A stretch of DNA of 62,292 nucleotides, filler included. It is 4 parts of 4 records of this genome, joined end to end, with 100 filler letters (N's around TTAATTAATTAA, not from the genome) between each part and the next. Parts side by side here need not be neighbours in the genome. Positions count along the whole stretch, not along the records: positions 1 to 26,539 come from SRR20825006_1506; 3 more parts are not named here. One strand, given 5' to 3'. This document shows, piece by piece, positions 1 through 19,337 of this stretch. The notes under the pieces were generated by a model, which saw nothing but the letters and a program-made list of their open reading frames with translations, had not been told where the DNA came from and did no database searches. A program made the translations under genes and the position numbers. How positions within the stretch are numbered: position 1 is the stretch's first letter; each line of letters opens with the position of its first letter.

Positions 1-102
1 GTCGGATTACGCCTTTAGGCTCTCTGTGCCGCTACATTCGTAGATCCGTAGGTCGAATTAGCCTAAAGGCGTAATCCGACATCCAAAGCTAACTCAACCT
101 AC
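1..102. repeat. GTAG-type REP cluster (inverted REP pair plus a degenerate half copy)
   Basis: 1-21 GTCGGATTACGCCTTTAGGCT is the exact reverse complement of 60-80. 48-80 is GTAG followed by an imperfect palindrome. 88-102 matches the reverse complement of 48-62 at 13/15. Confidence 0.8.
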
Positions 103-110
103 AAAGCCCA

Positions 111-1067
111 CTAGAATCGATAGCCACTGTCCGGCGTGGAAATGGGCGCTGGCACAGGTAACGCTGGCGGCTCCTCACTCTCGCCGGACGACTCGGGCAC
201 CTCTTTCGCTTTCGTCACCTCGGCAGCACAATCATTGTCCTGCATGAAATCCACCAAACGCTGCTGCACCGCCGGATCCCGAGTACTTTCCGTGTGTCCG
301 CCACGCAGTTTCTGGAAGGTTTTGGGTTGCTCTGCGGCCGCGTACAGCCGCTCGCCGTGAGCGAAGGGAATCACCGGGTCATCTTCACTGTGCATCACCA
401 GCAAGGGCGTCGGCGCAATGTCAGCCACCCGCGCCTCCGGGTCCAGTGCGCGGTCCGGCATGGTAGGCACCACCATCCAGCGCAGTGGCCACAGCAACCA
501 GCTACGCTTCATCACATCGCTGGTGATATCCCGGTAGCTGGCAAACGCCGCCTCCAGAATCACGCAATCTGCCGCCCCGGCATTGGCCTCTTCGCCCAAC
601 ACGCTGGCGGCCATGGACGCACCCAGGCTCTGCCCGAATACCACCAACGGCGCACCTTCCGTGCGCTGGGCATGGCGTAGCCAGTCCAGTCCCAGTTGCA
701 CATCATCGAAAACATCCGGCAGCCGCGGCTTGCCTTCCGACAGCCCATAGCCCCGGTAATCCAGCAGGAAGACGTTATAGCCCCGCGCCGGCAGCCACTG
801 CACATTGGCCAGATGGGTGCTGATATTCTGGGCGTTACCGTGCAGAAAATAGACCGTGCCACGGGCCGGCGCATCATCGGCCGCCGGTAGCCACCAACCG
901 TGGATACGCATGCCGCGCGGATGTATCAGTACAATATCTTCGTACTGCAACCCCTGGTTTTCCGGGTTCTGCACCCACGGAGACATGGGGTAGAAAAACA
1001 GTTTGCTGCACCCTGCCAGCAGCAGGCCCAGCAGCAACGCTGCGCTTAATCGTAATACCATCGCCAT
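111..1067 (-). CDS. Alpha/beta hydrolase lipoprotein (YfhR/ABHD13-ABHD17-like)
   Basis: Lipobox LAGC; HGNA oxyanion motif, DYRGYG, nucleophile GQSLG, HSEDD acid, GGH histidine. Confidence 0.9.
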   Translation of the reverse strand: MAMVLRLSAALLLGLLLAGCSKLFFYPMSPWVQNPENQGLQYEDIVLIHPRGMRIHGWWLPAADDAPARGTVYFLHGNAQNISTHLANVQWLPARGYNVFLLDYRGYGLSEGKPRLPDVFDDVQLGLDWLRHAQRTEGAPLVVFGQSLGASMAASVLGEEANAGAADCVILEAAFASYRDITSDVMKRSWLLWPLRWMVVPTMPDRALDPEARVADIAPTPLLVMHSEDDPVIPFAHGERLYAAAEQPKTFQKLRGGHTESTRDPAVQQRLVDFMQDNDCAAEVTKAKEVPESSGESEEPPALPVPAPISTPDSGYRF

Positions 1068-2869
1068 TGGAGTTTGAACTCGTCATCGTAACCGCCCCGT
1101 CTGTTCTCGCGCTCCAGCGAAGCGCGCAAGCCGTGCTGGCGGGTCATTGCCCACTGCACCGCAAACTGGGAGGTGTATCGATATTCATCGTTGGTGAAAT
1201 AATGCCCCACACTACCTAACTGCCACTGCCAGTCGCCACGGTGATACAAAATGCCCGTGTCCAGACCGGCCCCCGGGGTCAGGAAGGTGCCGAACTCGCT
1301 ATTATTCTCCATTCGCACGCTGGTTAACAGATACGGCTGCCAGTTCCCCCACAGCCAACTGCCGCCAGCACCACCCTGCATGTAGCGCACCAGCCGGCGG
1401 CGCCCCGCCCAGGCACGCTCCAGGCCACCTTCCACGTACCAGCTCAGAGGCTTCATAAACCGGTTGCGCGGTGCCAGGGAACGGATGCTCACCACGTCCA
1501 GCTCTTCCAGCTTGACCTGCCCGGACTCGGTGCTACGCAAAGTCAGGTCCAGCCCTTCGATCTGTGCCCCGCGCAGAAAGCCGTATTGATTGTCGAGCAA
1601 ATCATGGTAGGTGAGCCGGTAAGTCAGCTCGCCAAAATCCTGCTCGCCTGCGCGCTGCCCACCACTAACCCCCAGCATCTGGGTGCCGTGCCCTTTTTCC
1701 GGTGGCTCGGGGTTCTCGGTTTCCGGCACCGGTGCGGCGGGCAGGCTGTTCATCAACGTCAGTAGCGCAAAGGAGCGTTTCGCCACATCCGGGGTTCGCT
1801 CTTCCTTGCGATGGGTCAGCCTGATGTAGCGATAAGCCACCGCCGCCATAATCGCCCGGGTTTCTTCCGGTTCAGCCCTAAAGGCAGGCGATTCGGCCAG
1901 GTCAGGGTCATCCGCCAGCGCCCTTGCCAGTTTTTGCTGCGCACCATCCAGTTGCCTGCGCAGATTATCCAACTCTACGGATTTGGAGGGCCGATAATGG
2001 CGGCTGTTAATAATGTCGCGCTCATCCAGCGCGCGCACTGTGTTCACCGGCACTTCGGCAAACCGCAACTCGCTGAGCAATTCGGATCCCGGACGCGCCA
2101 CTTCCACCAGCTCTAGCAGGCGAAACGAACAATTTTCATCAAAAAAGTAGTAATCGAAGTTGATGTCTTTCAATTCCCAGAGATGATCAATCAGCCAATC
2201 GATTTCCGTCTGATCAAGATCCAGGGTGTATTCCCACATATCCCGGTTTTCCATGTGCGAATATTCCTGAATCTTCTGCACATAGGGCACCAACGCAAAA
2301 CGGCCGGGGTAACCGCCAGCCAAACCGCGATACATATAGAAAAACGAATTGTCGGCTTCAGTAGAAACCGCACCAAAATTCACCGCCCAGGACAGCCACA
2401 CCGCACTGTCTTCACCCTGGTCCAGGCGTAGCAAGGTATGTCCGAACATGGACGAAGGGCTGTTCAAATAGGCTGCGGGGAAAACCAGCACCGCACGGTT
2501 GGCATGAATCGCGCCGCGCCATTCGTTGTAGTCAGCGCAGTGTGAAAAGGGTGCCTCGTCCTGCCAACCCAGGTGCTCAGACAGAAAACGATAGCGCGCC
2601 GGAAAACGGCAACGCGCCAGGGAACCCGCCGCATGAAGAGCCCTCTCGGTGGCCTCAAGCTCGGCTAACGGGTCGGTCTTCCCGGAATCGGCGAGAAAAA
2701 ACGTATCGTCATCCACATAACTCTGGTGTTTGTCACGCAGAGTCGCACCGGGGTTGATATGCAATAACGCCTGCCAGCGAGGAGTTTCCGCCAGTTCGGC
2801 CAAGGTAGGGGTTGCAGCAAACGCCGGCATAAACCAGCACAGCAGCACACAGAAAAGACCAGTGCGCAT
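1046..2869 (-). CDS. DUF4105 (Lnb N-terminal-like) domain protein with probable C-terminal outer-membrane beta-barrel
   Basis: Signal peptide; SMFGHTLLR and YYFFDENCS motifs; ENRDMWEY; alternating aromatic/hydrophobic strands in the last ~210 aa ending FKLQWRWYYD. Confidence 0.85.
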   Translation of the reverse strand: MRTGLFCVLLCWFMPAFAATPTLAELAETPRWQALLHINPGATLRDKHQSYVDDDTFFLADSGKTDPLAELEATERALHAAGSLARCRFPARYRFLSEHLGWQDEAPFSHCADYNEWRGAIHANRAVLVFPAAYLNSPSSMFGHTLLRLDQGEDSAVWLSWAVNFGAVSTEADNSFFYMYRGLAGGYPGRFALVPYVQKIQEYSHMENRDMWEYTLDLDQTEIDWLIDHLWELKDINFDYYFFDENCSFRLLELVEVARPGSELLSELRFAEVPVNTVRALDERDIINSRHYRPSKSVELDNLRRQLDGAQQKLARALADDPDLAESPAFRAEPEETRAIMAAVAYRYIRLTHRKEERTPDVAKRSFALLTLMNSLPAAPVPETENPEPPEKGHGTQMLGVSGGQRAGEQDFGELTYRLTYHDLLDNQYGFLRGAQIEGLDLTLRSTESGQVKLEELDVVSIRSLAPRNRFMKPLSWYVEGGLERAWAGRRRLVRYMQGGAGGSWLWGNWQPYLLTSVRMENNSEFGTFLTPGAGLDTGILYHRGDWQWQLGSVGHYFTNDEYRYTSQFAVQWAMTRQHGLRASLERENRRGGYDDEFKLQWRWYYD

Positions 2870-2923
2870 CCGGATTCATCCGTCTAGATTAACAAGCCGA
2901 CAACAGTGTCAGAAAAGAGGATC

Positions 2924-2952
2924 AAAAAAACAAAACCCCGCCAGAAGCGGGG
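2924..2952 (-). terminator. Intrinsic terminator between DUF3015 and DUF4105 genes
   Basis: Minus strand CCCCGC-ttctg-GCGGGG followed by TTTTGTTTTTTT, about 22 nt after the DUF3015 stop. Confidence 0.7.
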
Positions 2953-2974
2953 CCCTGATGGAACTTTTTGCCAA

Positions 2975-3457
2975 TTAGGCCAGGTACTTGGACAGCGCCT
3001 GATCCTGCTTCATTACGTCAGTGATGCTTGCCATTACGTCGGCAGCGGTCACGTCCTGGTTCGGGAAAATGGTCGCGAAGTTTTCATGCATCAGCGCATT
3101 GAAGCGTGCACGGTCTTCAGCCTGAATACCCATGGAAACAGACAGGGCAGTCAGGGCTTCACCGTCGCCGGTAGCCATGTCCTGGGCCACTTCTTCCATT
3201 ACACCCGTCATGCCCAGCAGGCTTTGGCCACTGTAAGTCAGGGCGCCGCTGGTATCACAACCGTTAGTCCCTGTGGTTATGCCGAAAGTAGCGTTACCGG
3301 TCGAACCGTTAAAGGTGACACCCAACAGATGCATGGGCATGCCGGATTTACCTTCGAACAGCAAATTGCCCCAACCACAGCCCGGACCACCCGGAGCCAC
3401 AGCCATGGCCGATGTTGAAGCGCCCAGCAGAGCGGCAGCGATAAGTGTCTTTTTCAT
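2975..3457 (-). CDS. DUF3015 family secreted protein
   Basis: Signal peptide ending AMA; GCGWG, TFGITTGTNGC and DMAxGxGE motifs; GGAG RBS. Confidence 0.85.
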   Translation of the reverse strand: MKKTLIAAALLGASTSAMAVAPGGPGCGWGNLLFEGKSGMPMHLLGVTFNGSTGNATFGITTGTNGCDTSGALTYSGQSLLGMTGVMEEVAQDMATGDGEALTALSVSMGIQAEDRARFNALMHENFATIFPNQDVTAADVMASITDVMKQDQALSKYLA

Positions 3458-3621
3458 CCTGAAATCTCCCAGTCTTTATTTAGAATCCTAGGGGGAGCGC
3501 GCTGGTCTTCACTGCCAATCATCAGCGTTGCGAGACCGCTTACGTCCCCGCCGCATTCTTTGCGGCTGGTTTCATCATAAACAAGGCGTATGCCGTTGCA
3601 ATCGATAAAACGGCACGCCCG

Positions 3622-4059
3622 TCACACCGAAAGCATAAAAGTCACCGGGCCATCATTCACCAGATGCACCTGCATATCCGCGCCGAACTCCCCCGTCGCT
3701 ACGGATAGATGCTTTTCTTCCAGCGCCTCGACAAATTTCTCATACAGCCGACGCCCCTCCGCCGGTACCGCTGCACTGCTAAAACTGGGCCGCCGGCCCT
3801 TGCGGGTATCAGCGGCCAGGGTAAATTGCGACACCACCAACAATGCCCCCTGTACATCCCGAATATCCAGATTCATTTTCCCTTCCGCATCGCTGAACAG
3901 GCGATAGCTCAGTACCCGTTCAGCCATGCGCACAATGGCCGCATCGTCATCACCCTTCTCGATCCCCACCAACAACAACATCCCGTGGCCAATCGCGCCA
4001 ACGGTTTCCTCTGCCACAACCACGTGGGCCTCACGACATCGCTGAACAAGAACTTTCAT
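3622..4059 (-). CDS. dtd: D-aminoacyl-tRNA deacylase
   Basis: MKVLVQR start, SQFTL and NDGPVT signature motifs. Confidence 0.97.
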   Translation of the reverse strand: MKVLVQRCREAHVVVAEETVGAIGHGMLLLVGIEKGDDDAAIVRMAERVLSYRLFSDAEGKMNLDIRDVQGALLVVSQFTLAADTRKGRRPSFSSAAVPAEGRRLYEKFVEALEEKHLSVATGEFGADMQVHLVNDGPVTFMLSV

Positions 4060-4115
4060 ATTCACCTGCTGACTGAACGAGATTCTGGCTGTGTGCCTAG
4101 AGGAACAAGGGTATG

Positions 4116-4235
4116 TATAATCGCCCCTTGGACAAGCGCCCCCAACGATTTGCCATGCCGCTGGGGCCGCAACGTGCCTCCAAACGCCAGGGAACGGGCA
4201 ATGCGGGGCACAGCAGACACTCGAAAATCATTATA
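4116..4235. promoter_or_regulatory. Candidate divergent sigma70 -10 elements for the aryl-polyene cluster (+) and dtd (-)
   Basis: TATAAT on + at 4116-4121 and on - at 4230-4235 in the only intergenic gap; -35 boxes are weak. Confidence 0.35.
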
Positions 4236-4302
4236 ACCATCTGCTTTTAGTCGTTCATTTCGCCGGGTCGGCATGACACCCGGTGCGAGCAGTCGGGGAA
4301 CC

Positions 4303-5010
4303 ATGCCAGAACTGACCATCACAGTGAGCCACTGGGCCGCCTGGGCGCCAGGGATAAGCAGCCCGCCGCAATGGGCACGCTGGGTGCCGGGCCAGCCCCC
4401 GGGCGAGGGCACGCCAGATGTGAGCTGGTTACCGGCGCTGCAACGGCGGCGCCTGTCTCCCCTTGCCCGCAGCGTTTTCCATGTGGTCAACGAAATTGCC
4501 CAGCAACATAACGTGAGCACCTTGCCCACCGTGCTGGCGTCACGCCATGGCGAAATCGCCCGCACCCAGACCCTGCTGGAAAATCTGGCCGATCGGGAAC
4601 CCTTGTCCCCGGCCACCTTCAGCCTGTCCGTCCATAATGCTATTGGCGGCCAGCTCAGCATTGCCCTGGGCAACCAGCAACCGGTCAGCAGCGTGGCACT
4701 GGGCGAAGAAGGGCTGGGCTCCGCGTTGCTGGAAGCGGCCTGCCTGCAGGACGGCGACACACCCGTGTTGGTTTTGGTCTACGACGGCCCCCTGCCGGCA
4801 TACTATCTGCCCTACGGTGACAGCGAGCCCTTTACCTGGGCCATTGCCCTGCTGCTGGGCGGCGACGGCCCCCGCTTCCGGCTCAGTCCCGGGCCAGCCA
4901 GCCCCGACACAGTCGCGCAGGGGCCGCACCTGGCCCGCGCCCTGGCCCGGGACGACACGCATATTGCCCTGCCCGGTCAACGCAGCGGCTGGCAGCTGGA
5001 GAGACTATGA
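4303..5010 (+). CDS. Beta-ketoacyl synthase chain-length factor (ApeC-like)
   Basis: RRRLS, SRHGE and SPATFSLSVHNA motifs; no catalytic Cys motif; GGGGAA RBS before ATG 4303. Confidence 0.9.
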   Translation: MPELTITVSHWAAWAPGISSPPQWARWVPGQPPGEGTPDVSWLPALQRRRLSPLARSVFHVVNEIAQQHNVSTLPTVLASRHGEIARTQTLLENLADREPLSPATFSLSVHNAIGGQLSIALGNQQPVSSVALGEEGLGSALLEAACLQDGDTPVLVLVYDGPLPAYYLPYGDSEPFTWAIALLLGGDGPRFRLSPGPASPDTVAQGPHLARALARDDTHIALPGQRSGWQLERL

Positions 5011-5846
5011 GTTCAACCTCGCAAACCGAAACCCCGGGGCTGCCGAAAAGCCTGCGCCTGGTCAGTACCGCCATCAGCTTTGCCGGCTTTGGCGCTGGCG
5101 GGTTGGTGATCGCCGTATTGATGACACTCAGCCGGTTGCTGCCCGGCTCGCAGCAAAAGCGGGCCCAGCGCGGCCAGTTCATCGTGCACACCGCGTTTCG
5201 GCTGCATATCTGGCTGATGGAAAGTCTGGGAGTCATGCGCCTGCAGCTGCGCGGTGAAAACAAGCTGAACCAACCCGGGCAACTGGTCATCGCCAATCAC
5301 CCCAGCTTGATTGATGTGGTCTGCCTGATCAGCCGGATCCCCCACGCCAACTGCATCGTCAAACACCAGCTCTTCAATAACCCCTTTACCTGGGGGCCGG
5401 TCACCGGTGCCGGCTTCATCAGCAACAAAGACCCGGAAACCATGATCAACGAAGCGGTAGACTGGCTCAACGCCGGCGGCACCATGGTGATCTTTCCGGA
5501 AGGCACCCGTACCCGGCCGGGCGAACCACTGCGGTTTCAGCGCGGCACCGCCAATATTGCCCTGCGTGCCAACTGCCGCCTGAGCCCGGTGACCATTCGC
5601 TGCACCCCGACCACCCTGACCAAGGCCGAACCCTGGTACCGGATACCGGCGCGGCGCTTCACCATGGACCTGCAAGTGCAGGACGATATCGCGCTGGCCC
5701 CCTTCAAGGATGACGGCGCCTCCCCCCTGGCGGTGCGCCGCCTGACCCGTTTTCTGGAACAGTACTTCAACGAGGAGATCAACGCCGATGAGCGACACTC
5801 TGGAACACGAACTCAAGGCGCTGATTATCAGCACTCTGGATCTTGA
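5007..5846 (+). CDS. Lysophospholipid acyltransferase, PlsC family (ApeD-like)
   Basis: NHPSLID (HX4D) and FPEGTR motifs. Confidence 0.92.
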   Translation: MSSTSQTETPGLPKSLRLVSTAISFAGFGAGGLVIAVLMTLSRLLPGSQQKRAQRGQFIVHTAFRLHIWLMESLGVMRLQLRGENKLNQPGQLVIANHPSLIDVVCLISRIPHANCIVKHQLFNNPFTWGPVTGAGFISNKDPETMINEAVDWLNAGGTMVIFPEGTRTRPGEPLRFQRGTANIALRANCRLSPVTIRCTPTTLTKAEPWYRIPARRFTMDLQVQDDIALAPFKDDGASPLAVRRLTRFLEQYFNEEINADERHSGTRTQGADYQHSGS

Positions 5847-6045
5847 GGATATCACTCCCGCAGATATCGACAGCGAAGCCCCGTTGTTTGGCGACGGTCT
5901 GGGCCTGGATTCCATCGACGCGCTGGAGCTGGGTCTGGCCATTGCCAAGACCTACGACGTAAAAATGGATGCAGACAACGAAGAAACCCGTCAGCACTTT
6001 GCCAGCATCAAGGCCCTGGCGGCTTTTGTACAAGAGAACCGGTGA
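5788..6045 (+). CDS. Acyl carrier protein (ApeE-like)
   Basis: GLGLDSIDALEL phosphopantetheine site; acidic 85 aa; GAGGAG RBS. Confidence 0.95.
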   Translation: MSDTLEHELKALIISTLDLEDITPADIDSEAPLFGDGLGLDSIDALELGLAIAKTYDVKMDADNEETRQHFASIKALAAFVQENR

Positions 6046-6050
6046 TAGCC

Positions 6051-6299
6051 ATGCAGAACTATGACGATATTTTTCCGCTGGTGCGCGACATTCTGGTCGA
6101 CATGTTTGAACTGGACGCGGAGCAAATCCAGCCGGATGCCAAGCTCTATGACGACCTGGATATCGACAGCATCGACGCCGTCGACCTGGTGGTAAAAATC
6201 AAGGAAGTCACCGGGCGCAAGGTCAAACCGGAAGACTTCAAAAGCGTGCGCACCATTGATGACGTGGTGATCGCCGTACAGAAACTGCTGGAAGACTGA
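6051..6299 (+). CDS. Acyl carrier protein (ApeF-like)
   Basis: DLDIDSIDAVDL phosphopantetheine site. Confidence 0.95.
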   Translation: MQNYDDIFPLVRDILVDMFELDAEQIQPDAKLYDDLDIDSIDAVDLVVKIKEVTGRKVKPEDFKSVRTIDDVVIAVQKLLED

Positions 6300-6851
6300 A
6301 TGCTGCGCGGCACCTTGCTGACCCTGCTGATCGCCCTCACTGTGGCCTACCCGCTGGCGGTTTACTATGGGCTGCAGCACGTTTCGCCACGGATAATGGC
6401 CGCCGCGTTGGCCGCCATTATCGGCCTGCGCCTGCTGGCTGATCGGCAACGCCGTTTCCTGCCGGTGGGCCTGGTGCTGCTGGTCTTCAGCGCGGTGGCA
6501 ATCTGGCGCGATGACCTGACCACGCTGCGTCTCTACCCGGTACTGGTAAACCTGGTCATGCTTGGCCTGTTCAGCTGGACCTTGCTGTTTCCGCCCTCAT
6601 TGATCGAACGCCTGGCGCGACTGAAAGAGCCAGACCTGCCACCCAGCGGCGTACGCTATACCCGCCGGGTGACCCAGGTGTGGTGTGGCTTTTTTGTGCT
6701 CAACGGCAGCATCGCGGCTTATACCGCCCTGTACAGCAGCCTGGCCACCTGGACCCTGTACAACGGCCTGATCAGCTACCTGCTGATGGGTACCCTGTTC
6801 GGCGGTGAATTTTTGCTGCGCCTGCGTATTCGCAAACAACCCGCGCCATGA
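6300..6851 (+). CDS. COG4648-type membrane protein (ApeG-like)
   Basis: Multiple TM segments; LYPVLVN, IERLARL, YTRRVT and WTLYNG motifs. Confidence 0.88.
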   Translation: MLRGTLLTLLIALTVAYPLAVYYGLQHVSPRIMAAALAAIIGLRLLADRQRRFLPVGLVLLVFSAVAIWRDDLTTLRLYPVLVNLVMLGLFSWTLLFPPSLIERLARLKEPDLPPSGVRYTRRVTQVWCGFFVLNGSIAAYTALYSSLATWTLYNGLISYLLMGTLFGGEFLLRLRIRKQPAP

Positions 6852-8539
6852 TGATGCTTACTCACCTGTTCCCCTCATTAGCCGATGACCATCTGATTGG
6901 CTGGCACCAGAACCAGCCCATCCGGGGCGAACAGCTGTGCGCGGATGTGGCCGCACTGAGTGGCCAGCTGGACACACTCCCGGCGCGCCACTGGGCGGTC
7001 TTTCATGGTCACGCCTACCCAACGCTGGTGGCGCTGCTGGCCCTGTGGCAAACCGGACGCAGCGCCTGGTTGCCCGGCAATAATCTGCCCTCCACCGAAG
7101 CCGCGTTGGCCGATCACTGCCAGGGCTTCCTGGGCGAATGGCAAACACCCACCCCCCTACCCAATGGCGACACGTTGACTCTCGGCAACGCCAGCCCGGA
7201 CGCCGAACTGGTAATTTTCACCTCTGGCTCCAGCGGCGAACCCAAGGCGATCCACAAGCAATACCGCCAGCTCCTTAATGAGCTGGACACCCTGGAACAG
7301 GCCTTCGGCCACCGGCTCACCGCCGACACTGTGTTCGCAGGCACCGTCAGTCACCAGCACATTTATGGCCTGTTGTTCCGGCTGCTATGGCCCCTGGCCA
7401 GCGGTCGTCCACTGGTCAGCGAACAGCTGCAGGACCCTCTCAGCCTGCTCACCCGAGCCCAGTCGCAGCCTACTGCCTGGGTGGCCAGCCCGGCGCACCT
7501 GAAACGGCTACGCCACGATCTGCCCTGGCAAAAAACTCCACCGCTGCAGGCGATCTTTTCCTCCGGCGGCCCACTGCCCCGTGACATCGCCCTGCAGATG
7601 GCACAACAACATGGCCAACCGGTGACTGAAGTCTATGGCTCCAGCGAAACCGGCGGCATCGCCTGGCGCTGCCAGCAACCGGATGACGATAGCTGGGCAC
7701 CGTTGCCCGGCATCCATGTAAAGACAGAACACGGGCGCGCCACCCTGTACTCCCCCCATCTTCCGGACGGCCAGCCCTGCCCGCTGGATGACCAGATAGA
7801 AGAGCAGTCCAACGGCCGTTTCCGGCTTGGCCCCCGCAAGGACAGCATCGTGAAAATTGAAGGCAAGCGCCTGTCGCTCAACACCCTGCGCAGCGCCCTG
7901 AACAACGCCGAGTGGGTGGCCGAAGCCGATGTCATCGTGCTGCCCGACCAGCGACTGGGCGCCATCGTGGTGTTGACCGCCGCCGGCAGACAGGTCCTGG
8001 CCGAACAGGGTCGTCGCGCGCTCAGTCAAACGCTGCGCGCGCACCTGGCACCGCACGTGGATGCCGTGGGCCTGCCCCGCCGGTGGCGCTTTGTGGCGCG
8101 CTTGCCGGAAACCCCCCAGGGCAAACGCCCGCTGGCGCAGTTGCAGGCTCTGTTCACCAGCAGCCAGTCCCTGCTGCCCGAGCCGCTACCCGCAGAACCC
8201 CAGCCCGACCTCGCGGACAACACCGTTACCCTGGCCCTGCCCATCGACCACGACCTGCCCTGGTTCAGCGGCCACTTTGCCCAGCAAGGCGTGCTCCCCG
8301 GCGTGGTACAAATCGATTGGGCCGAAGGCTTTGCCCGGCAACACTTTTCGCTGCCCGGCACCCTCAGCCACCTGGAAGTCATCAAGTTCAACAGCCTGAT
8401 CACCCCCGGCAACCCGGTGCAACTGAAGCTGGAATGGAAGCCGGACAGCGGCAAGCTGTTGTTTGCTTTTCGCAGCCTGGACGATGACCGCCCACACAGC
8501 AGCGGCCGGCTGGTGTTCCACCCGGACAGCCCGTCATGA
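6848..8539 (+). CDS. AMP-dependent acyl-ACP synthetase fused to a FabA/FabZ-like dehydratase (ApeH-ApeI fusion)
   Basis: FTSGSSGEPK and YGSSETGG adenylation motifs; C-terminal FSGHF...LPGVVQI hotdog motif. Confidence 0.9.
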   Translation: MMMLTHLFPSLADDHLIGWHQNQPIRGEQLCADVAALSGQLDTLPARHWAVFHGHAYPTLVALLALWQTGRSAWLPGNNLPSTEAALADHCQGFLGEWQTPTPLPNGDTLTLGNASPDAELVIFTSGSSGEPKAIHKQYRQLLNELDTLEQAFGHRLTADTVFAGTVSHQHIYGLLFRLLWPLASGRPLVSEQLQDPLSLLTRAQSQPTAWVASPAHLKRLRHDLPWQKTPPLQAIFSSGGPLPRDIALQMAQQHGQPVTEVYGSSETGGIAWRCQQPDDDSWAPLPGIHVKTEHGRATLYSPHLPDGQPCPLDDQIEEQSNGRFRLGPRKDSIVKIEGKRLSLNTLRSALNNAEWVAEADVIVLPDQRLGAIVVLTAAGRQVLAEQGRRALSQTLRAHLAPHVDAVGLPRRWRFVARLPETPQGKRPLAQLQALFTSSQSLLPEPLPAEPQPDLADNTVTLALPIDHDLPWFSGHFAQQGVLPGVVQIDWAEGFARQHFSLPGTLSHLEVIKFNSLITPGNPVQLKLEWKPDSGKLLFAFRSLDDDRPHSSGRLVFHPDSPS

Positions 8540-9285
8540 ATGCCTGCATCGTGATTCCGGTATTCAATCATGGCGCCACCCTGGCCGGTGTACTGGCGCA
8601 GCTGCAACCGTTCGGGCTGCCGGTAATATTGGTGGATGACGGCAGCGATGCGGATACGGCCCGCACCTTGCGACAGCTGGCCAACGGCCATCCCGAACGC
8701 ATCACGCTGTACACGCGCACGGAGAATGGCGGCAAAGGCGCGGCGGTGATGGACGGCCTGCGCCAGGCCCGCCAGCTCGGCTTCAGCCACGCTCTGCAGA
8801 TTGATGCCGATGGCCAGCACCGCAGCGCCGACCTGCCCCGTTTTCTGGACGCCGCCCGCACCAACCCGAATGCGCTGATCACCGGCACACCGCAATACGA
8901 TGCCTCCGTGCCCAAGGGCCGACTGTATGGCCGCTACCTGACCCACGTGTGGGTCTGGATCAACACCCTGTCGCTGGATATTCGCGATTCCATGTGTGGG
9001 TTCCGGGTCTACCCACTGGTCCCCACCATGGCCATCATCGACCGTGTGGCCCTGGGCAAACGCATGGAATTCGACTGCGAAATCCTGGTCCGCCTGCACT
9101 GGCAGGGCACGCCCATCATCAACCTGCCCACGGCCGTCCAGTATCCGGAAAACGGGCTCTCCCACTTCCGCTTGCTGAAAGACAACCTGCTGATCAGCAA
9201 CATGCACGCCCGCCTGTTTTTCGGCATGCTGGTGCGCCTGCCATGGATCCTGTGGCGACGAATTCCGGGGCGGCGGCTGACATGA
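8536..9285 (+). CDS. Glycosyltransferase family 2
   Basis: VIPVFN, VDDGS, NGGKG and IDADGQH motifs. Confidence 0.93.
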   Translation: MNACIVIPVFNHGATLAGVLAQLQPFGLPVILVDDGSDADTARTLRQLANGHPERITLYTRTENGGKGAAVMDGLRQARQLGFSHALQIDADGQHRSADLPRFLDAARTNPNALITGTPQYDASVPKGRLYGRYLTHVWVWINTLSLDIRDSMCGFRVYPLVPTMAIIDRVALGKRMEFDCEILVRLHWQGTPIINLPTAVQYPENGLSHFRLLKDNLLISNMHARLFFGMLVRLPWILWRRIPGRRLT

Positions 9286-10211
9286 GTAACGGCAAGACCT
9301 GGTTCCACTTTGAAGAGCGCGGCGTGTTCTGGGGCATGCGCCTGATCCTGGCCACCTACGGCTTGCTGGGCCGCGCCGTGTGCCTGTGTCTGGTCAACGC
9401 CGTGGTGCTCTATTACTGGCTCAGCCACAGCAAGGCCCGCGCCGCCAGCACCGATTATCTGCAGCGCATCGCGCAACATCCCAACAGCACCGTGGTCGCC
9501 GACCGCCGCACCAGCCTGCGCCACTTTATGCAGTTCGGCGCCGCTGTGGTCGATAAATTTGCCGCCTGGCGCGGCGATATCACCTTCGAACAGGTCCATA
9601 TTCCCGACCGCAGCCCACTGGAACGCATCCTCGACACCGGCCGCGGCGGCGTACTGATCGGCGCCCACCTGGGCAACATGGACGTGTGCCGGGCCATGTC
9701 GCAAATGCGCGACGACATCCGCCTGAATGTGCTGGTGCACACTCGCCATGCGGAAAAATTCAATCGCCTGCTGGGCGAAATCAGTGACAACGTGAACCTG
9801 GCGCTGATTCAGGTCAGCGAACTGAGTCCGGCTACCGCCATCCTGTTACAGCAACGGGTGGATGCCGGCGAACTGGTGGTCATCATGGGCGACCGGGTGC
9901 CGCTCAGTGGCGGCCAACGCACTGTGCCCGCCCCGTTCCTTGGCGAGCCGGCCCCCTTTCCGCAAGGCCCTTTCATTCTCGCCAGCCTGCTCAAGTGCCC
10001 GGTGCTGACCCTGTTCTGCACCCGCGAAAAAAACCATTTCCAGATTGAATTCCGGCCCCTGGCCGACCGCATTATCCTGCCCCGCCGTGACCGCAACACA
10101 GCCATGGCCGGCTACATTCAGGATTATGCCGCGCAGCTGGAAGCACAGTGCCTGCGCTATCCACTGCAATGGTTCAACTTCTACGACTTCTGGCATCAGG
10201 ATACCCTCTGA
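9282..10211 (+). CDS. LpxL/LpxP-family acyltransferase
   Basis: AHLGNMD (HX4D), MGDR and PLQWFNFY motifs; ATG 9282 overlaps the GT2 stop. Confidence 0.88.
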   Translation: MSNGKTWFHFEERGVFWGMRLILATYGLLGRAVCLCLVNAVVLYYWLSHSKARAASTDYLQRIAQHPNSTVVADRRTSLRHFMQFGAAVVDKFAAWRGDITFEQVHIPDRSPLERILDTGRGGVLIGAHLGNMDVCRAMSQMRDDIRLNVLVHTRHAEKFNRLLGEISDNVNLALIQVSELSPATAILLQQRVDAGELVVIMGDRVPLSGGQRTVPAPFLGEPAPFPQGPFILASLLKCPVLTLFCTREKNHFQIEFRPLADRIILPRRDRNTAMAGYIQDYAAQLEAQCLRYPLQWFNFYDFWHQDTL

Positions 10212-10213
10212 CC

Positions 10214-11773
10214 GTGACTCAACCGCCCACCCCAACCGTTACCTTCGATGGCGCCCCGGTGACCCTGGAACAGGTCTGCCAACTTTCTCGCCGGCAGGCC
10301 AATAGCCGGCTCGGCAACGGCGAATTCCAGCAACGCATTGAGCGCGGCGCGACGTTTCTCGAACGTCTGCTGGCCCGCGAAGGGGTCATCTACGGTGTCA
10401 CCACTGGCTACGGTGACTCCTGCACCACCGCCATTCCGGAAGCCCTCACCGGGCAACTGTCGGAGAAAATATTCACCTTTCATGGCTGCGGGCTGGGCGC
10501 ACACTTTGATGCACAAAGCACCCGCGCCATTCTCGCCGCCCGCCTCACCAGCCTGTGCCGGGGTTATTCCGGAGTGCGCTATGAGCTGCTGCAGCAACTG
10601 CACCGGCTGCTCGACGAAGACCTGCTGCCCCTGATTCCCCAGGAAGGATCGGTGGGCGCCAGCGGCGACCTGACACCGCTTTCCTATGTCGCCGCCGCCC
10701 TGGCCGGGCAGCGCCAGCTACGACAGGGGGAGCAGATTCGCGAGGCATCCGAAGTCTTTGCGGAACGCCACATCCCCCCCCTGACCCTGCGCCCCAAGGA
10801 AGGTCTGGCGGTGATGAATGGCACCGCGGTGATGACCGGCCTCGCCTGCCTGGCGTTTGACCGGGCCAACTATCTGGTTTCCCTGGGCACCCGCATCACC
10901 GCCCTGGCCAGCCTGGCCATTCAGGGCAACGCCTACCATTTTGATGAAGTGCTGTTCTCGGTGAAGCCGCACCCGGGCTCCCAGCTGGCCGCCCGCCGCC
11001 TGCGCGCCGACCTGCAAGCCAGCAACGCCCCCAGCCACGAAGCCCGCCTTCAGGATCGCTACTCCCTGCGTTGCGCCCCCCATGTGCTGGGCGTGCTCAG
11101 CGACACCCTGAGCCAACTGCGCAGCTTCGTGGAAGTGGAACTGAACAGCGCCAATGACAATCCGATTATTGATGGCGACAACGAACGGGTGCTGCACGGC
11201 GGGCACTTCTACGGTGGCCACATCGGCCAGGCCATGGACAGCCTGAAAACCGCCACCGCCAGCGTCGCCGACCTGCTCGACCGGCAACTGGCGCAGCTGG
11301 TGGACGTGAAATTCAACCACGGTCTGCCCGCCAACCTGTCCGGCAGCAGCGGCCCCGGCGCCTGCCTGGACCACGGCTTCAAGGCGGTACAAATTGGCGC
11401 TTCGTCCTGGACCGCAGAAGCACTGAAACTGACCATGCCCGCCACCAGTTTTTCCCGCTCCACCGAGTGCCATAATCAGGACAAAGTCAGCATGGGCACC
11501 ACCGCCGCCCGCGACGCCCTGCGAGTGCTTGAGCTCAGCGAGCAAGTGGCCGCCGCCGGGCTGCTGGCCAGCTGTCAGGCCGTGGAACTGCGCCTGGCAC
11601 AGGACGGGCGCGACATTCACAGCCTGCCACCGGCCCTGCGCGACACCCTGCTGGCGGTGCGCGAAGACAGCGCCCGCATCAACGAAGACCGGGCTCTGGA
11701 ACCGGAACTACGGCAGCTGCTCAGCCGCATCCGCCAACAACACTGGAACCTGTATGCCGACACCAGCGAATAA
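10214..11773 (+). CDS. Aromatic amino acid ammonia-lyase (HAL/PAL/TAL, MIO enzyme)
   Basis: YGVTTGYG, GSVGASGDL (MIO-forming ASG), QDRYSLRC and HNQDKVSMG. Start assigned to GTG 10214, uncertain. Confidence 0.93.
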   Translation: MTQPPTPTVTFDGAPVTLEQVCQLSRRQANSRLGNGEFQQRIERGATFLERLLAREGVIYGVTTGYGDSCTTAIPEALTGQLSEKIFTFHGCGLGAHFDAQSTRAILAARLTSLCRGYSGVRYELLQQLHRLLDEDLLPLIPQEGSVGASGDLTPLSYVAAALAGQRQLRQGEQIREASEVFAERHIPPLTLRPKEGLAVMNGTAVMTGLACLAFDRANYLVSLGTRITALASLAIQGNAYHFDEVLFSVKPHPGSQLAARRLRADLQASNAPSHEARLQDRYSLRCAPHVLGVLSDTLSQLRSFVEVELNSANDNPIIDGDNERVLHGGHFYGGHIGQAMDSLKTATASVADLLDRQLAQLVDVKFNHGLPANLSGSSGPGACLDHGFKAVQIGASSWTAEALKLTMPATSFSRSTECHNQDKVSMGTTAARDALRVLELSEQVAAAGLLASCQAVELRLAQDGRDIHSLPPALRDTLLAVREDSARINEDRALEPELRQLLSRIRQQHWNLYADTSE

Positions 11774-12188
11774 ACGCCTGCAACACAGCATCCAGATTGA
11801 GGTGCCCTTCCACGATGTGGACATGATGGAAGTGGCCTGGCACGGCCACTATGTGAAGTACTTTGAAGTGGCCCGCTGCGCGCTGCTGGAGCAGTTCAAC
11901 TACAACTACCTGCAAATGCGCGAGTCCGGCTACGCCTGGCCAGTCATCGACCTGCACCTGCGTTACGCCCGCCCGGCCCGTTTTGGCCAGACCATCACCG
12001 TCACCGCCACCGTGCGCGAGTGGGAAAACCGGCTGAAAATCAGCTACCTGATCAGCGATGAAAACGGTCAGCGCCTTACCCGTGGCCACAGCATTCAGGT
12101 GGCTGTGGACATGACCAACGAGGAAATGCTCTACGTCAGCCCGCCCGTTCTTCTGCAACGGCTGGGTGTGGAAGGGGAACAGGAATGA
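11754..12188 (+). CDS. Acyl-CoA thioesterase, 4HBT family (ApeK-like)
   Basis: VPFHDVDMMEVAWHGHYVKYFE motif. Confidence 0.9.
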   Translation: MPTPANKRLQHSIQIEVPFHDVDMMEVAWHGHYVKYFEVARCALLEQFNYNYLQMRESGYAWPVIDLHLRYARPARFGQTITVTATVREWENRLKISYLISDENGQRLTRGHSIQVAVDMTNEEMLYVSPPVLLQRLGVEGEQE

Positions 12189-12772
12189 AGCGGCGCGCAC
12201 TGCAATGGATGGTGACGCTGACCCTGCTGCCGTTGTTCGCCCACGCCCTGACACTGGCGGAGATTGAGCAACAACTGGACCCGGCACCAGTCTTGAACGC
12301 AGACTTCCGCCAGCAGCAACACCTGGCCATGCTGTCGCGGCCACTGGTCTCCACCGGCTCGCTGTTATTGATCAAGGGCCACGGCCTGCAATGGCAAATG
12401 AAAGCACCTTTTACCAGCGATCTGAAACTGATCGACGGCACCCTCTACAGCAACGGCCAGGCAGACAGCCTACCCGGTGGCGACGCCTTTTCGCGACGGC
12501 TGATGATGGTTCTGTCCGGCGATTTTTCCGCCCTGGACAACGCCTTTGAGATTGAGGCCAGCGGCCAACCGGAGCAATGGACCCTGACACTGGAACCGCG
12601 TAACGCCACTCTCAAGAAAGTCCTGCACGGCCTGTCCGTTTCTGGCGGCCGCACCCCGGAACAGTTCCGCTTGAACTATCCCAATGGCGATTACAGCGTG
12701 ACCACGCTCAGCAATATCCAGCTCACCGATACCCCCACGGACGACGAGGAGCAGAGGCTTGCGCGCCCCTGA
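12185..12772 (+). CDS. LolA-like lipoprotein/lipid carrier (ApeL-like)
   Basis: Signal peptide; FRQQQHL, PLVSTG, LQWQMKAPF and WTLTLEP motifs. Confidence 0.85.
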   Translation: MKRRALQWMVTLTLLPLFAHALTLAEIEQQLDPAPVLNADFRQQQHLAMLSRPLVSTGSLLLIKGHGLQWQMKAPFTSDLKLIDGTLYSNGQADSLPGGDAFSRRLMMVLSGDFSALDNAFEIEASGQPEQWTLTLEPRNATLKKVLHGLSVSGGRTPEQFRLNYPNGDYSVTTLSNIQLTDTPTDDEEQRLARP

Positions 12773-15116
12773 TCGTCTTGCCGGTTTTCGCCTGAACCGC
12801 CCGCTGGGTGCAGCACTGTGGTGCCTGCTGATTCTGCTCGGCATCACCCTGGCCGCCTCTGGCCTGCGCTCACCCCACTGGCTGAACAGCAACCTGCTCG
12901 CCATGCTGCCACAGGACACCGTGCCCGCAGCGACCCGGCAGGTCAGCGATCGCTACCGGCAAACCTTGTCCTCGACAACCCTGTGGCTGACCCCCGGCGA
13001 CAGCCCCGCCGACGCCGCCCGCCGCACCGAACAACTGCGCCGGGCCCTTGGCGGCAGCGCCCTGTTCGACGAGATCGGCCCGACCCTGTCCGAGCAGGAT
13101 CTGCAGCAACGTTACCGGGCGCTGGCCCCGTACCGCTATCAGCTACTCACCCCCACCGACCGGCAAGCCGCGCTCTCGCAACCGGACGCCCTGATTCAAC
13201 AGGCGCTGGCACGGCTCTATCGTCCCTCCGGCGCCTCCAGCCAGCAGTGGCAAGCGGATCCACTATTCCTTTTCGAACGCTACCTGGCGTCCCTGTCGCG
13301 CAATAGCACAGCGCTGCATAACGGCATCGCCATGCTTTCCCACGGCGACCGCTACTGGGGCATGAGCCTGGCCAGCACTCGCCACGACAGTTTTGCCATC
13401 GATCAGCAAACACAGCTGGATGCGTTCCGCCGGCAGATGCAACAGGATTTCCCCGACACCCTGTTCACTGGCATGCCGTTTTATGCCGCCGCAGGTGCGG
13501 TGAGCGCGGAACGGGAAATTCGCACCGTGGGGCTGTTTTCGCTTGTCTGCATCGTGTTGCTGTTTGTGCTGGTGTTTGCCAGCTTGCGCCCCTTGCTGCT
13601 GGCCCTGATCAGCATCGCCAGCGGCGTCCTCTGGGGGCTGGCCGCCAGCCTGTGGCTATTCGGCGAACTGCATCTGCTGGCGCTGGTGTTCGGCGCCAGC
13701 CTGATCGGCGTGTCGGTGGATTACAGCATTCATTATTTCTGCCATTTACGCGGGCAGCCGGACGCCGCCCCCATTACGGTCCGCAACCGCCTGTTGCCAC
13801 CGCTGGGACTGGCCCTGCTCAGCAGCGTGCTGGGCTACTCCGCCATGGCCTGGGCACAATTCCCCGGACTGCGGCAAGTGGCCGTATTCTCCATCAGCGG
13901 GCTGGTGATGGCCTGGCTCACCGTGATGCTGCTGTTCCCGGCATTGAGCCGACAAACCGGCGCGACCCTGTCGCCCTGGGTGGCGCGTCTGCACCGGATC
14001 ATGGCCCACTGGCAGCGCCTGATCCTGCGCTTTCGCTGGCTGGCACTGGCCGCCGGAGCGGCCATCGTGTCCGGCATGCTGTGGCTGTCTGCAAGTGACG
14101 ATGTGCATGATTACCAGACGCCCCCGGCACACCTGCAGGCCATGCAGACCCAGCTTGGCAAAATCACCGACAACGCACCCGGTGCCTATTTCGTGGTGCA
14201 CGGTCGCGATATCCAGCACTGGTGGCAACGGGAACAACAACTGCACGACGCACTGCAGGCCGCCCATATCGATAGTGATGCCCTGTCGCGCTACTGGGTA
14301 CCGGCGCAACAACAACACACGATCCATACCGCATTGGCCGACGGTGTTTTCCAGCACCCACGCTTTACCCGCTTCAGTGACACCGTGGGCATGACTGACG
14401 CTGCCCGGCAAAAAGTGCAGGCCGATTTCGACCAGCCGGTAACGCCCCTGTCGCTGCCCGACTGGCTACAACGGCTGGACAACCCGGCCCTTTCGCAACT
14501 GTGGCACGGCTGCGACGATCAAGGTTGTCGCAGCCTGGTGCTGGTTCGCGGCAAGGTGGATTCACCGCACGAGACACCACTCGCCACCTTCAACGCGCCG
14601 GATCAGGGCATCACCCTGATCGACGACGCCAGCAGCATCAGCTCGCTGATGGGTACCCTGCGTGACCACCTGCACCTGCTGCTGATTGCTGCCTACGCCC
14701 TCAGCGCCATGCTGCTCACCCTGGCCCGAGGCCCGGTGTTTGCCCTGCGGCTGCTGGCGGTACCCGCGCTGGCCAGCCTGGTAGTGCTGGGCAGCCTGGG
14801 CTGGCTCACCGGCCACTACGGCCTGATCCATGTGCTCGCCCTGTTCCTGATCCTGGGTATTGGCATCGACTACGCCATTTTCTATCAGCAGGATGGCCAT
14901 ACCCCCACTGCCACCCTGGCCGTGCTGTTTTCTGCCACCACCACCTCGCTAAGTTTCGGCCTGCTGGGGCTGAGCGATACCCAGGTGGTGCATGATTTTG
15001 GCTTCAGCGTCTTTATCGGTATTGTGGCCGCGGCCTTGCTGGCACCTCTGTTTGCCGTCACCCCTTCACCTTTACCCCCTGCTTCGGAGAACAGACGCCC
15101 CCATGACCGACACTGA
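12759..15116 (+). CDS. MMPL/RND-family exporter (ApeM-like)
   Basis: Two TM repeats with GVSVDYS and GIGIDYA motifs and large periplasmic loops; start uncertain. Confidence 0.9.
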   Translation: MRAPDRLAGFRLNRPLGAALWCLLILLGITLAASGLRSPHWLNSNLLAMLPQDTVPAATRQVSDRYRQTLSSTTLWLTPGDSPADAARRTEQLRRALGGSALFDEIGPTLSEQDLQQRYRALAPYRYQLLTPTDRQAALSQPDALIQQALARLYRPSGASSQQWQADPLFLFERYLASLSRNSTALHNGIAMLSHGDRYWGMSLASTRHDSFAIDQQTQLDAFRRQMQQDFPDTLFTGMPFYAAAGAVSAEREIRTVGLFSLVCIVLLFVLVFASLRPLLLALISIASGVLWGLAASLWLFGELHLLALVFGASLIGVSVDYSIHYFCHLRGQPDAAPITVRNRLLPPLGLALLSSVLGYSAMAWAQFPGLRQVAVFSISGLVMAWLTVMLLFPALSRQTGATLSPWVARLHRIMAHWQRLILRFRWLALAAGAAIVSGMLWLSASDDVHDYQTPPAHLQAMQTQLGKITDNAPGAYFVVHGRDIQHWWQREQQLHDALQAAHIDSDALSRYWVPAQQQHTIHTALADGVFQHPRFTRFSDTVGMTDAARQKVQADFDQPVTPLSLPDWLQRLDNPALSQLWHGCDDQGCRSLVLVRGKVDSPHETPLATFNAPDQGITLIDDASSISSLMGTLRDHLHLLLIAAYALSAMLLTLARGPVFALRLLAVPALASLVVLGSLGWLTGHYGLIHVLALFLILGIGIDYAIFYQQDGHTPTATLAVLFSATTTSLSFGLLGLSDTQVVHDFGFSVFIGIVAAALLAPLFAVTPSPLPPASENRRPHDRH

Positions 15117-16332: not shown

Positions 16333-16865
16333 CAGCGTCGCTGCTGATAGCACTCCTGTTCAGCCTGCTCGGTGGCTGCCAACTGCTGGCACCGGCAGCG
16401 CCGCCACTCGCGGCCCCACTGCACCATGAGCATCAGCTGGAGCACCTGCTGACCCTCACCCATGACGGGCAACAACTGCGCCTGCGCTGCGTGCTGGAAA
16501 CCGGCAACGGGGAAACCCGGGTCGTTGCGCTGAATGAAGCCGGGCTGGTGCTGGTGCAGATGCGCCAGAACGAGCAGGGCCTGACAGTAGAGCGCTCCGC
16601 ACTGCTGCCCGATACCTTCCCCGCCGAACAGGTGATGGCCGATATTCAGCTGATTTTTTGGCCGGCCAGCGCCATCCAGGCCTCGCTGCCCACCGCCTGG
16701 TCACTGAGCGTCGAAGCCAATTCCCGCACCCTGTACCATAACGGCCAGCCGGTAACACAGGTGCACTATCAGGGCAGCCCCTGGCAGGCCCCCTCGGCGC
16801 TGAACAACCTGCGTTATCGCTACCAACTGAATCTGACGCCCTTGAGTCCAGACGCAACACCATGA
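16314..16865 (+). CDS. DUF3261 lipoprotein (ApeN-like)
   Basis: Lipobox LGGC; ADIQLIFWP motif; position in cluster. Confidence 0.8.
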   Translation: MCRLPLTASLLIALLFSLLGGCQLLAPAAPPLAAPLHHEHQLEHLLTLTHDGQQLRLRCVLETGNGETRVVALNEAGLVLVQMRQNEQGLTVERSALLPDTFPAEQVMADIQLIFWPASAIQASLPTAWSLSVEANSRTLYHNGQPVTQVHYQGSPWQAPSALNNLRYRYQLNLTPLSPDATP

Positions 16866-19261: not shown

Positions 19262-19337
19262 CAGGCGCAAAAGCCCCCCGCAGCGGCTGTGTTAACATGG
19301 CCGCCCTCAGTCCAGCAGGAAAGAATGGAGAACAGGA

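Follow-up and report, generated by a model that had tools for sequence, protein, structure and literature searches.

Gram-negative bacteria are generally held to lipidate their proteins in the inner membrane, by means of Lgt, Lsp and Lnt (or Lnb). At the outer membrane, PagP acts on the acyl chains of envelope lipids and is, to our knowledge, the only well-studied outer-membrane acyltransferase. The N-acylation of lipoproteins by Lnb needs Cys148, and an acyl-cysteine intermediate is inferred for it in the available text of PMC11573676. Tox-Act1, which forms a sister clade of DUF4105 (now Lnb_N), cleaves phosphatidylglycerol and phosphatidylethanolamine to lysophospholipids, and LRAT and the H-RAS-like suppressor enzymes are described alongside it (available text of PMC12994826). 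Here, we report on three adjacent genes at positions 111 to 3,457 of a stretch of 62,292 nucleotides, filler included, which is composed of four joined parts and of which positions 1 to 26,539 come from SRR20825006_1506; this whole stretch is referred to as the window. Judging from how its closest proteins and loci are named, it derives from a relative of Alloalcanivorax or Alcanivorax. The genes encode a small DUF3015 protein, an Lnb-like enzyme with a predicted C-terminal outer-membrane barrel and a lipoprotein of the alpha/beta hydrolase fold. DUF3015 and the enzyme are a tight pair, and the three genes form one widespread envelope module in which the hydrolase is an accessory part and not an integral third member.

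Linkage of the genes across genomes

DUF3015 was found in 40 of 300 scored Gammaproteobacteria genomes (one more was left unscored) and Lnb_N in 59 of 301, a tally that counts in two unpublished genomes, G040 and G142, which are used for none of the claims made here. In every one of the 40 DUF3015 genomes the two families lie on the same contig and the same strand within 2 kb of each other, as established by comparing the coordinate tables by hand, and DUF3015 is directly upstream of Lnb_N in 38 of them and downstream in two (G301 and G193). Across the phylum sample DUF3015 was present in 33 of 401 genomes, and Lnb_N lay beside it in 14 of the 14 tested, a set made up of ten genomes from other classes and four with weak matches, with the other 19 outside the test. 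Among the named loci, which are the best 80 of more than 600 matching stretches in one-genome-per-species records, the DUF3015 gene stands directly upstream of the enzyme gene in 72; one locus is cut by a contig end, and seven, carrying the names Pseudomonas, Ectopseudomonas or Metapseudomonas, have no DUF3015 within 4 kb. All five of these exceptions that were tested carry DUF3015 elsewhere in the genome. The survey bears out, for the pair, the co-occurrence across taxa that a sequence-only reading of this DNA had expected. Among the carriers are members of the P. putida and P. fluorescens groups of Pseudomonas, which are easy to manipulate, and Alcanivorax, which degrades oil.

When all open reading frames (ORFs) of 56 fetched loci were clustered blindly, only the enzyme, DUF3015 and the hydrolase recurred as neighbours, and the other flanking genes vary between loci. 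That the three genes are unrelated neighbours without a common function is extremely improbable. Such an explanation would account for the variable flanks and for the frequent absence of the hydrolase, but it is contradicted by the adjacency of the pair in all three samples, by the near confinement of the hydrolase subfamily to genomes with the pair and by the predicted binding of DUF3015 to the enzyme, both of which are described below.

Either gene of the pair can be present in more than one copy. Tandem DUF3015 copies precede one enzyme gene in five of the 40 genomes, and four loci (L003, L067, L069 and L070), named Salinisphaera and Spectribacter with the exception of L003, have two barrel-type enzyme genes in tandem behind one DUF3015 gene. 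At L025 (G193:C48, 7255-10106, minus strand) the DUF3015 match lies within an open frame of 817 residues, overlapping with the ORF of the enzyme in a different frame, which could be a frameshift or a fusion, and a second contig of the same genome (L026) has a lone DUF3015 gene beside a hydrolase gene.

The three genes are arranged in the window as follows.

2975-3457, minus strand: DUF3015 gene (160 amino acids), Pfam family PF11220
1046-2869, minus strand: Lnb-like enzyme gene (607 amino acids), with DUF7843, Lnb_N and DUF7840
111-1067, minus strand: lipoprotein alpha/beta hydrolase gene (318 amino acids), matching Hydrolase_4 and other alpha/beta-hydrolase families

The first 22 nucleotides of the hydrolase gene overlap with the last 22 of the enzyme gene, and a signal peptide can be read from the sequence at the N-terminus of all three proteins. 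The sequence-only reading had described these as three co-oriented exported proteins, and its ORFs, coordinates and strand, as well as its assignments to DUF3015, DUF4105 and a serine hydrolase, agree with the ORFs and Pfam profile matches obtained here. The features it had singled out in each protein are also present: an intact histidine (GHT) and cysteine (ENCS) in the enzyme, which are His144 in FGHTLL and Cys247 in DENCS, two cysteines in the small Gly-rich protein, which are C27 and C67, and the character of a serine-hydrolase lipoprotein in the overlapping third protein, in which a lipobox and a Ser-Asp-His triad were identified here.

The Lnb-like enzyme

The architecture of the enzyme combines a catalytic domain of a known family with a membrane domain that is not found in Lnb.

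Residues 1-18 signal peptide; 25-99 DUF7843; 114-283 Lnb_N; 296-375 helical region; 394-607 12-stranded barrel
2021-2530, minus strand: Lnb_N permuted NlpC/P60 domain, with the His144 codon at 2438-2440 and the Cys247 codon at 2129-2131
1745-1867, minus strand: helical hairpin (residues 335-375), which holds most of the predicted DUF3015 contacts
1049-1690, minus strand: C-terminal 12-stranded outer-membrane barrel (DUF7840), ending in aromatics (…WYYD)

The Pfam matches score 71 bits for DUF7843, 187.3 bits for Lnb_N (PF13387, cut-off 22.2) and 205 bits for DUF7840, and the Lnb_N match spans profile positions 2-174 of 175. The structural model is confident, with a predicted local distance difference test (pLDDT) value of 92.1 and a predicted template modelling score (pTM) of 0.90. 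In this model, residues 124-299 resemble TseH (6v98; Z 9.4, root mean square deviation 3.7, 149 residues aligned), the catalytic region also matches YiiX (2if6, Z 8.1), and the catalytic His144 precedes Cys247 in a papain-like fold, which is the order that characterizes permuted NlpC/P60 domains. His144 and Cys247 are each kept in 43 of 44 relatives, and the single exception (L046) has neither. Cys87 and Cys111 are invariant, and Asn164, found in 35 of the 44, is likely the third catalytic residue. Cys247, His144 and Asn164 correspond to C148, H49 and N66 of Lnb, as mapped by spacing and the shared Pfam domain and not by direct alignment. The exceptional copy, L046:6003-8033 on the minus strand, is of the barrel type with His replaced by Gln and Cys by Gly and has no DUF3015 neighbour; judging from these residues it is probably an inactive paralogue.

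Orthology to Lnb itself was considered and rejected. The NF051878 equivalog model gives 28.8 bits against a cut-off of 550 and over residues 140-258 only, and the enzyme has a 12-stranded barrel in place of the five-helix inner-membrane C-terminal domain and 607 residues against about 400. The short gammaproteobacterial Lnb_N proteins of L055 and L056 matched none of the NCBIfam models. A normal Lnt (299 bits) is encoded in the nearest genome compared, in line with the suggestion of the sequence-only reading that lipoproteins in these bacteria have their usual acyltransferase, and the Lnb-like enzyme is therefore not the only N-acyltransferase.

Structural matches to the barrel (residues 394-607) were led by the barrel of EstA (Z 15.1) and by Tsx (14.8), KdgM (14.2) and NanC (13.6), followed by NalP (13.3), LpxR (12.1) and OMPLA (10.6), while Foldseek returned NanC, KdgM, FapF and intimin. 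A signal peptide, an even number of strands (12) and an aromatic C-terminus are all present, as in outer-membrane barrels. In the scheme that we propose, the barrel most likely anchors the enzyme in the outer membrane with the catalytic domain at the periplasmic face, an orientation suggested by the very short outward connections and by the exposed hairpin next to the barrel. The enzyme could otherwise be an autotransporter-like surface protein that acts on external lipids or hydrocarbon esters as EstA does, with DUF3015 as a periplasmic chaperone or export helper. The rank of EstA among the matches speaks for this, as do the additional matches to the barrels of NalP, AaaA, AIDA-I and Hbp and the many carriers among marine bacteria that degrade oil or lipids (Alcanivorax, Zhongshania, Litorivivens lipolytica). 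However, the porins Tsx, KdgM and NanC match equally well, and in a comparison with Type Va autotransporters the EstA and NalP alignments begin at residue 394 and include no pore-spanning helix. Moreover, the predicted complex has the hairpin that precedes the barrel exposed and bound by DUF3015, and the would-be outward connections measure 3, 4, 5, 8, 4 and 2 residues in the strand list of the model. We regard a surface location as very unlikely.

DUF3015 and its predicted binding to the enzyme

The DUF3015 ORF matches PF11220 over profile positions 2-141 of 142 (E 1.5e-52, 177.7 bits, cut-off 25) and belongs to a family of 3009 clusters at 50% identity. Its signal peptide is of the Sec type (A-x-A), with a presumed cleavage site after A19-x-A21. 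The N-terminal half, with the consensus xGCGxG…TTNGTSGNQTFGxTSGTxGC, forms a Gly/Thr-rich loop closed by C27 and C67 and is the best-conserved part of the protein. C27 is kept in 37 of 37 sequences and is the sole invariant nucleophile; C67 is kept in 35. In the AlphaFold2 (AF2) model residues 1-75 have pLDDT values below 50, and residues 76-160 form a confident helical bundle (about 87-97 over 81-160) that bears a DMAxGxGE motif.

Searches for relatives of DUF3015 outside its own family gave little. Foldseek found no match to the model at E 0.001 or better, the best VIA Z was 5.8, and comparisons with odorant-binding proteins and with the type VI secretion system (T6SS) immunity proteins Rap2a, Rap1a and Tai4 stayed at chance level (about Z 3 for Rap and Tai4). 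Sequence searches of the PDB with the DUF3015 and enzyme profiles returned nothing below E 0.3, and a protein atlas search with DUF3015 returned its own family only. Longer or fused forms were sought and none was found, which is weak evidence. The best 150 representatives in the library are all of 115-243 amino acids. In the literature searched, DUF3015 appears only as a row of an expression table in Leptospira.

Modelling of the complex supports the binding of DUF3015 to the enzyme. The pair scored 0.73 and the best of three controls 0.13 in models that used no alignments, on a scale where the mark is reached by 51 of 78 solved complexes, by 2 of 108 mismatched pairs and by 7 of 44 blind-drawn neighbour genes; at least 35% of contacts recur between runs, and the partner has a pLDDT of at least 60. 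Complex modelling had been put forward by the sequence-only reading as a check on its proposal, and its outcome is favourable. DUF3015 is predicted to use mainly the helical bundle, including the DMAxGxGE motif, and the enzyme contributes the helical hairpin (343-379) and the catalytic-domain loops 153-159 and 197-201. Residues 367, 370 and 374 of the enzyme and 92, 95, 131 and 134 of DUF3015 are among the predicted contacts.

The type of partner follows the phylogeny of the enzyme. In a quick tree built from 44 enzymes, all eight that have a divergent four-cysteine DUF3015 type fall into a clade with 100% support and all 28 with the classical type into a clade with 95% support, and two genomes (G108 and G156) have retained a pair of either type. 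Partners of a different kind, lipoproteins, occur in related clades. At L036 the partner is a lipoprotein with a lipobox and only the helical domain of DUF3015, which indicates that the N-terminal loop is replaceable by a lipid anchor. The barrel enzymes of L044 and L050 have no DUF3015 and an unrelated small lipoprotein next door. As Lnb acts on lipoproteins, this replacement gives a hint, though nothing stronger, that the enzyme works on the N-terminus of its partner.

A separate family of long Lnb_N proteins (646-728 amino acids) was encountered at L047:6365-8305, L048:6208-8166, L049:6058-8190 and L052:812-2998, and the two members scanned (L047 and L049) carry both DUF7844 and Lnb_N. Other small secreted proteins are encoded just upstream at L048 and L052. 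Neither the L048 secreted protein nor the L044 lipoprotein has any homology to DUF3015.

The lipoprotein hydrolase

The signal peptide of the hydrolase closes with the lipobox LLAGC, of the L-[AS]-G-C type, and 20 of 20 orthologues keep the lipobox residue Cys20 as well as S147 (in GQSLG), D230 and H258; the Hydrolase_4 match scores 76.7 bits. Its fold and its Ser-Asp-His triad are those also expected of ABHD17-type protein depalmitoylases, which the sequence-only reading had brought up. Its nearest solved relatives by sequence are an esterase (5g59, E 3.5e-9) and monoacylglycerol lipases, among them that of M. tuberculosis (6eic, E 1.4e-8), and none is a protein deacylase. A protein atlas search gave generic alpha/beta hydrolases only. 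The C-terminus (window positions 111-240, minus strand) is extended by a Pro/Glu-rich tail, about 40 residues long and with GYRF at its end, which is absent from the 19 aligned orthologues.

An orthologue (at least 160 bits) adjoins the pair in 24 of the 40 DUF3015 genomes, a count that includes one fragment of 71 amino acids and one copy beside a lone DUF3015 on another contig, and in 32 of the 80 named loci. The names Pseudomonas, Ectopseudomonas, Metapseudomonas, Halopseudomonas and Pseudomonadaceae do not occur among these 32. No hydrolase lies beside the pair in the other 16 genomes and 48 loci, the latter including every listed locus of those five names. Five of the 16 genomes have a weaker match elsewhere, and 11 have none at E 1e-10 or better with a single-protein query. 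A hydrolase profile run over 300 genomes separated 25 genomes at 335 bits or more from a next tier at 209 bits or less, which includes the unpublished genomes G040, G142 and G297. The DUF3015-enzyme pair is carried by 24 of the 25 top-tier genomes, a figure that is partly circular as the profile was built from adjacent hydrolases. The remaining genome has its hydrolase at G290:C110:8999-9799 and gave no DUF3015 or Lnb_N match in the class searches.

The sequence-only reading had combined a substrate, a writer and an eraser, such that DUF3015 or a lipid would be acylated by the DUF4105 enzyme and specifically deacylated by the hydrolase in a reversible lipidation. The part of this proposal that joins substrate and writer has gained from the linkage of the pair and from the predicted binding. 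The eraser fares worse: because the hydrolase is so often missing beside the pair, not least in all the listed Pseudomonas-group loci, a fixed writer/eraser pair is unlikely. Arguments in its favour are the translational coupling of the hydrolase gene to the enzyme gene through their overlap, the near confinement of the hydrolase subfamily to genomes with the pair and the invariance of its triad and lipobox, and all evidence for DUF3015 as a client, given below, would apply equally. Yet the kinship with esterases and monoacylglycerol lipases suits the clearing of lysolipids at least as well, and we regard the complete writer/eraser scheme as improbable.

Expression of the DUF3015 gene

Signals around the DUF3015 gene may set its expression apart from that of the enzyme gene.

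2931-2957, minus strand: terminator-like hairpin (12 pairs, 7 of them G-C) with a T-run, downstream of the DUF3015 stop codon and ahead of the enzyme gene
3574-3601, minus strand: promoter-like site TTGCAA-16 nt-TATGAT upstream of DUF3015, by consensus match only
3611-3629: terminator-like hairpin of dtd, with the promoter-like site just after it

A hairpin with a T-run comes after the DUF3015 gene in 50 of 72 related loci, as compared with 7 of 216 windows taken from within the enzyme ORF as a control, which consists of coding sequence and is hence lenient. The sequences of these hairpins are unrelated between loci. As for promoter-like sites, two were found where 2.0 were expected in shuffles, so they are weak evidence. 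In RNA runs from two studies, one contig in X8 (2984-3457) and one in X9 (2960-3457) cover DUF3015 alone and both end near the terminator, and one contig in X2 (1432-3648) bridges the region and spans the hairpin; metatranscriptome contigs cannot rank expression and these are at most a weak hint. A scan of positions 1-4400 against Rfam returned zero RNA families. With a promoter-like site of its own and a terminator behind it, DUF3015 is probably produced in excess, and the arrangement suggests an excess over the enzyme.

Proposed function

We tentatively favour a role of this locus as an outer-membrane acyl-transfer module with DUF3015 as its client, at a probability that falls somewhat short of even. 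In such a module, the helical bundle of DUF3015 would dock on the hairpin beside the catalytic domain and thereby present its conserved N-terminal Cys-loop. Cys247 would take an acyl chain from a glycerophospholipid of the outer membrane to give a thioester, and the chain would then be handed to an acceptor, which we take to be DUF3015 itself or else a lipid presented by DUF3015. The lipoprotein esterase, where present, could clear the lysophospholipid by-product or, which is less likely, strip the transferred acyl chain again. These steps are drawn from the chemistry of the family: folds, residues, linkage, hairpin and binding are computed, and donor, acceptor, orientation and the part played by the hydrolase are what we infer. 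Hints that DUF3015 is a client come from the terminator behind its gene, the tandem copies, the invariant C27 and the lipoprotein partners in related clades.

Only a little less probable is that DUF3015 is not a substrate and instead a stoichiometric cofactor or inhibitor of an outer-membrane phospholipase or acyltransferase, the true substrates of which would be outer-membrane lipids, for example phospholipids or the acyl chains of lipoproteins. It might act like an activator by presenting or extracting lipids, or in the manner of an immunity protein by silencing a self-damaging lipase until envelope stress. A precedent exists in the sister clade, where the phospholipase Tox-Act1 is neutralised by an immunity protein partner (available text of PMC12994826). 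The predicted interface also involves the folded bundle next to the catalytic domain and not the Cys-loop, an excess of partner as implied by the terminator fits an inhibitor too, and strict co-inheritance with clade-matched partners speaks for this role as well. On the other hand, the trio are the only conserved neighbours and there is no secretion-system or conflict context, the best-conserved part of DUF3015 is hardly touched by the confident interface, the partners in related clades are lipoproteins, the substrate class of Lnb, and fold searches with the bundle gave no significant similarity to immunity proteins or to proteins that bind lipids.

Returning to the acyl-transfer module with DUF3015 as client, several points weigh against it. 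Within the N-terminal half of DUF3015, confident contacts are limited to residues 32 and 34-36, and residues of the predicted interface are not better conserved than the remainder (permutation p 0.93, 0.31, 0.88 and 0.55). C27 and C67 may just form a disulfide. The best barrel match is an autotransporter, EstA, which leaves the orientation ambiguous. To these come the lenient terminator control, the alignment-free complex models with their passing blind-drawn neighbours, and, for the third gene, its absence beside many pairs and the circularity of its profile.

A bolder extension would make the locus a further pathway for the lipidation of proteins, situated at the outer membrane and requiring neither Lgt nor Lsp, in which DUF3015, processed by signal peptidase I, is acylated on its Cys-loop with an outer-membrane phospholipid as donor, reversibly so where the esterase is kept. 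Taken as a whole, this would be quite unlikely to hold. Even so, if the enzyme transfers acyl chains at the outer membrane in any form, it would constitute a new step in the remodelling of envelope lipids or proteins, and three or four domains of unknown function would gain functions. The module is widespread, with more than 600 matching stretches and several thousand DUF3015 clusters, and unstudied in the literature searched. That search yielded no paper on the barrel-type enzyme or on the trio, and the supplementary list of DUF4105 homologues in PMC12994826 may already show the context.

Neighbouring genes

Beyond the DUF3015 gene the window continues with two features on its upstream side.

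3622-4065: dtd, upstream of the DUF3015 gene
4273-20564, plus strand: aryl-polyene-type biosynthetic cluster, beyond dtd and on the opposite strand to the trio

The cluster encodes a ketosynthase (KS)-like protein, a PlsC-type acyltransferase, two acyl carrier proteins, an AMP-ligase fused to an ApeI-like dehydratase, a GT2 glycosyltransferase, a lipid-A-type acyltransferase, an aromatic amino-acid lyase, a thioesterase, a halogenase-like flavoenzyme and KS and ketoreductase genes. Two of its ORFs on the plus strand, 12759-15116 (785 amino acids) and 6300-6851 (183 amino acids), have no Pfam family at E 1e-5. A functional link between the trio and this cluster was considered and rejected, since the KS-like gene stands beside the DUF3015 module in just 2 of 136 loci (L001 and L057) and the adjacency is thus local synteny.

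Comparison with known systems

What is new in this locus is the occurrence of a known Lnb-type catalytic domain in the outer membrane, with a barrel architecture and a dedicated secreted partner. PagP, PldA (OMPLA) and LpxR are likewise outer-membrane enzymes that move or remove acyl chains of envelope lipids. Their active site, however, lies within the barrel, whereas the barrel of the present enzyme seems to anchor a soluble Cys-His domain that is separate from it, and we know of no partner protein for any of the three. In LRAT and PLAAT enzymes, likened here by the chemistry described for them, the cysteine of a permuted NlpC/P60 domain accepts the acyl chain of a phospholipid and donates it to an alcohol or amine. 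The lipid products of such acyltransferases are then processed by an alpha/beta hydrolase of the ABHD4 type. The LRAT and PLAAT proteins differ in being cytosolic or endomembrane enzymes of eukaryotes that act on lipids only.

Tox-Act1 and TseH share with the enzyme the permuted fold in which His comes before Cys; they attack ester bonds of lipids, and each is paired with a small partner protein (available text of PMC12994826). They are, however, secreted T6SS toxins with immunity proteins in conflict loci, whereas the enzyme is chromosomal and membrane-anchored and has no secretion-system context. The LnsA/LnsB system of Staphylococcus aureus offers a parallel in that a protein of the NlpC/P60 superfamily needs a second protein for N-terminal acyl transfer, as related in the available text of PMC11573676, but LnsB is a membrane protein without sequence relation to DUF3015, and S. 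aureus is Gram-positive and has no outer membrane. Lnb itself remains the closest comparison. The two enzymes have the Lnb_N catalytic domain family in common, their His-to-Cys spacing is 103 residues here and 99 in Lnb (numbering of PMC11573676), and both are exported and act outside the cytoplasm. Lnb, as described in the same available text, has 398 amino acids with five inner-membrane helices, whereas the enzyme of this locus adds DUF7843, a helical hairpin and a 12-stranded outer-membrane barrel and is accompanied by DUF3015 as its dedicated partner.

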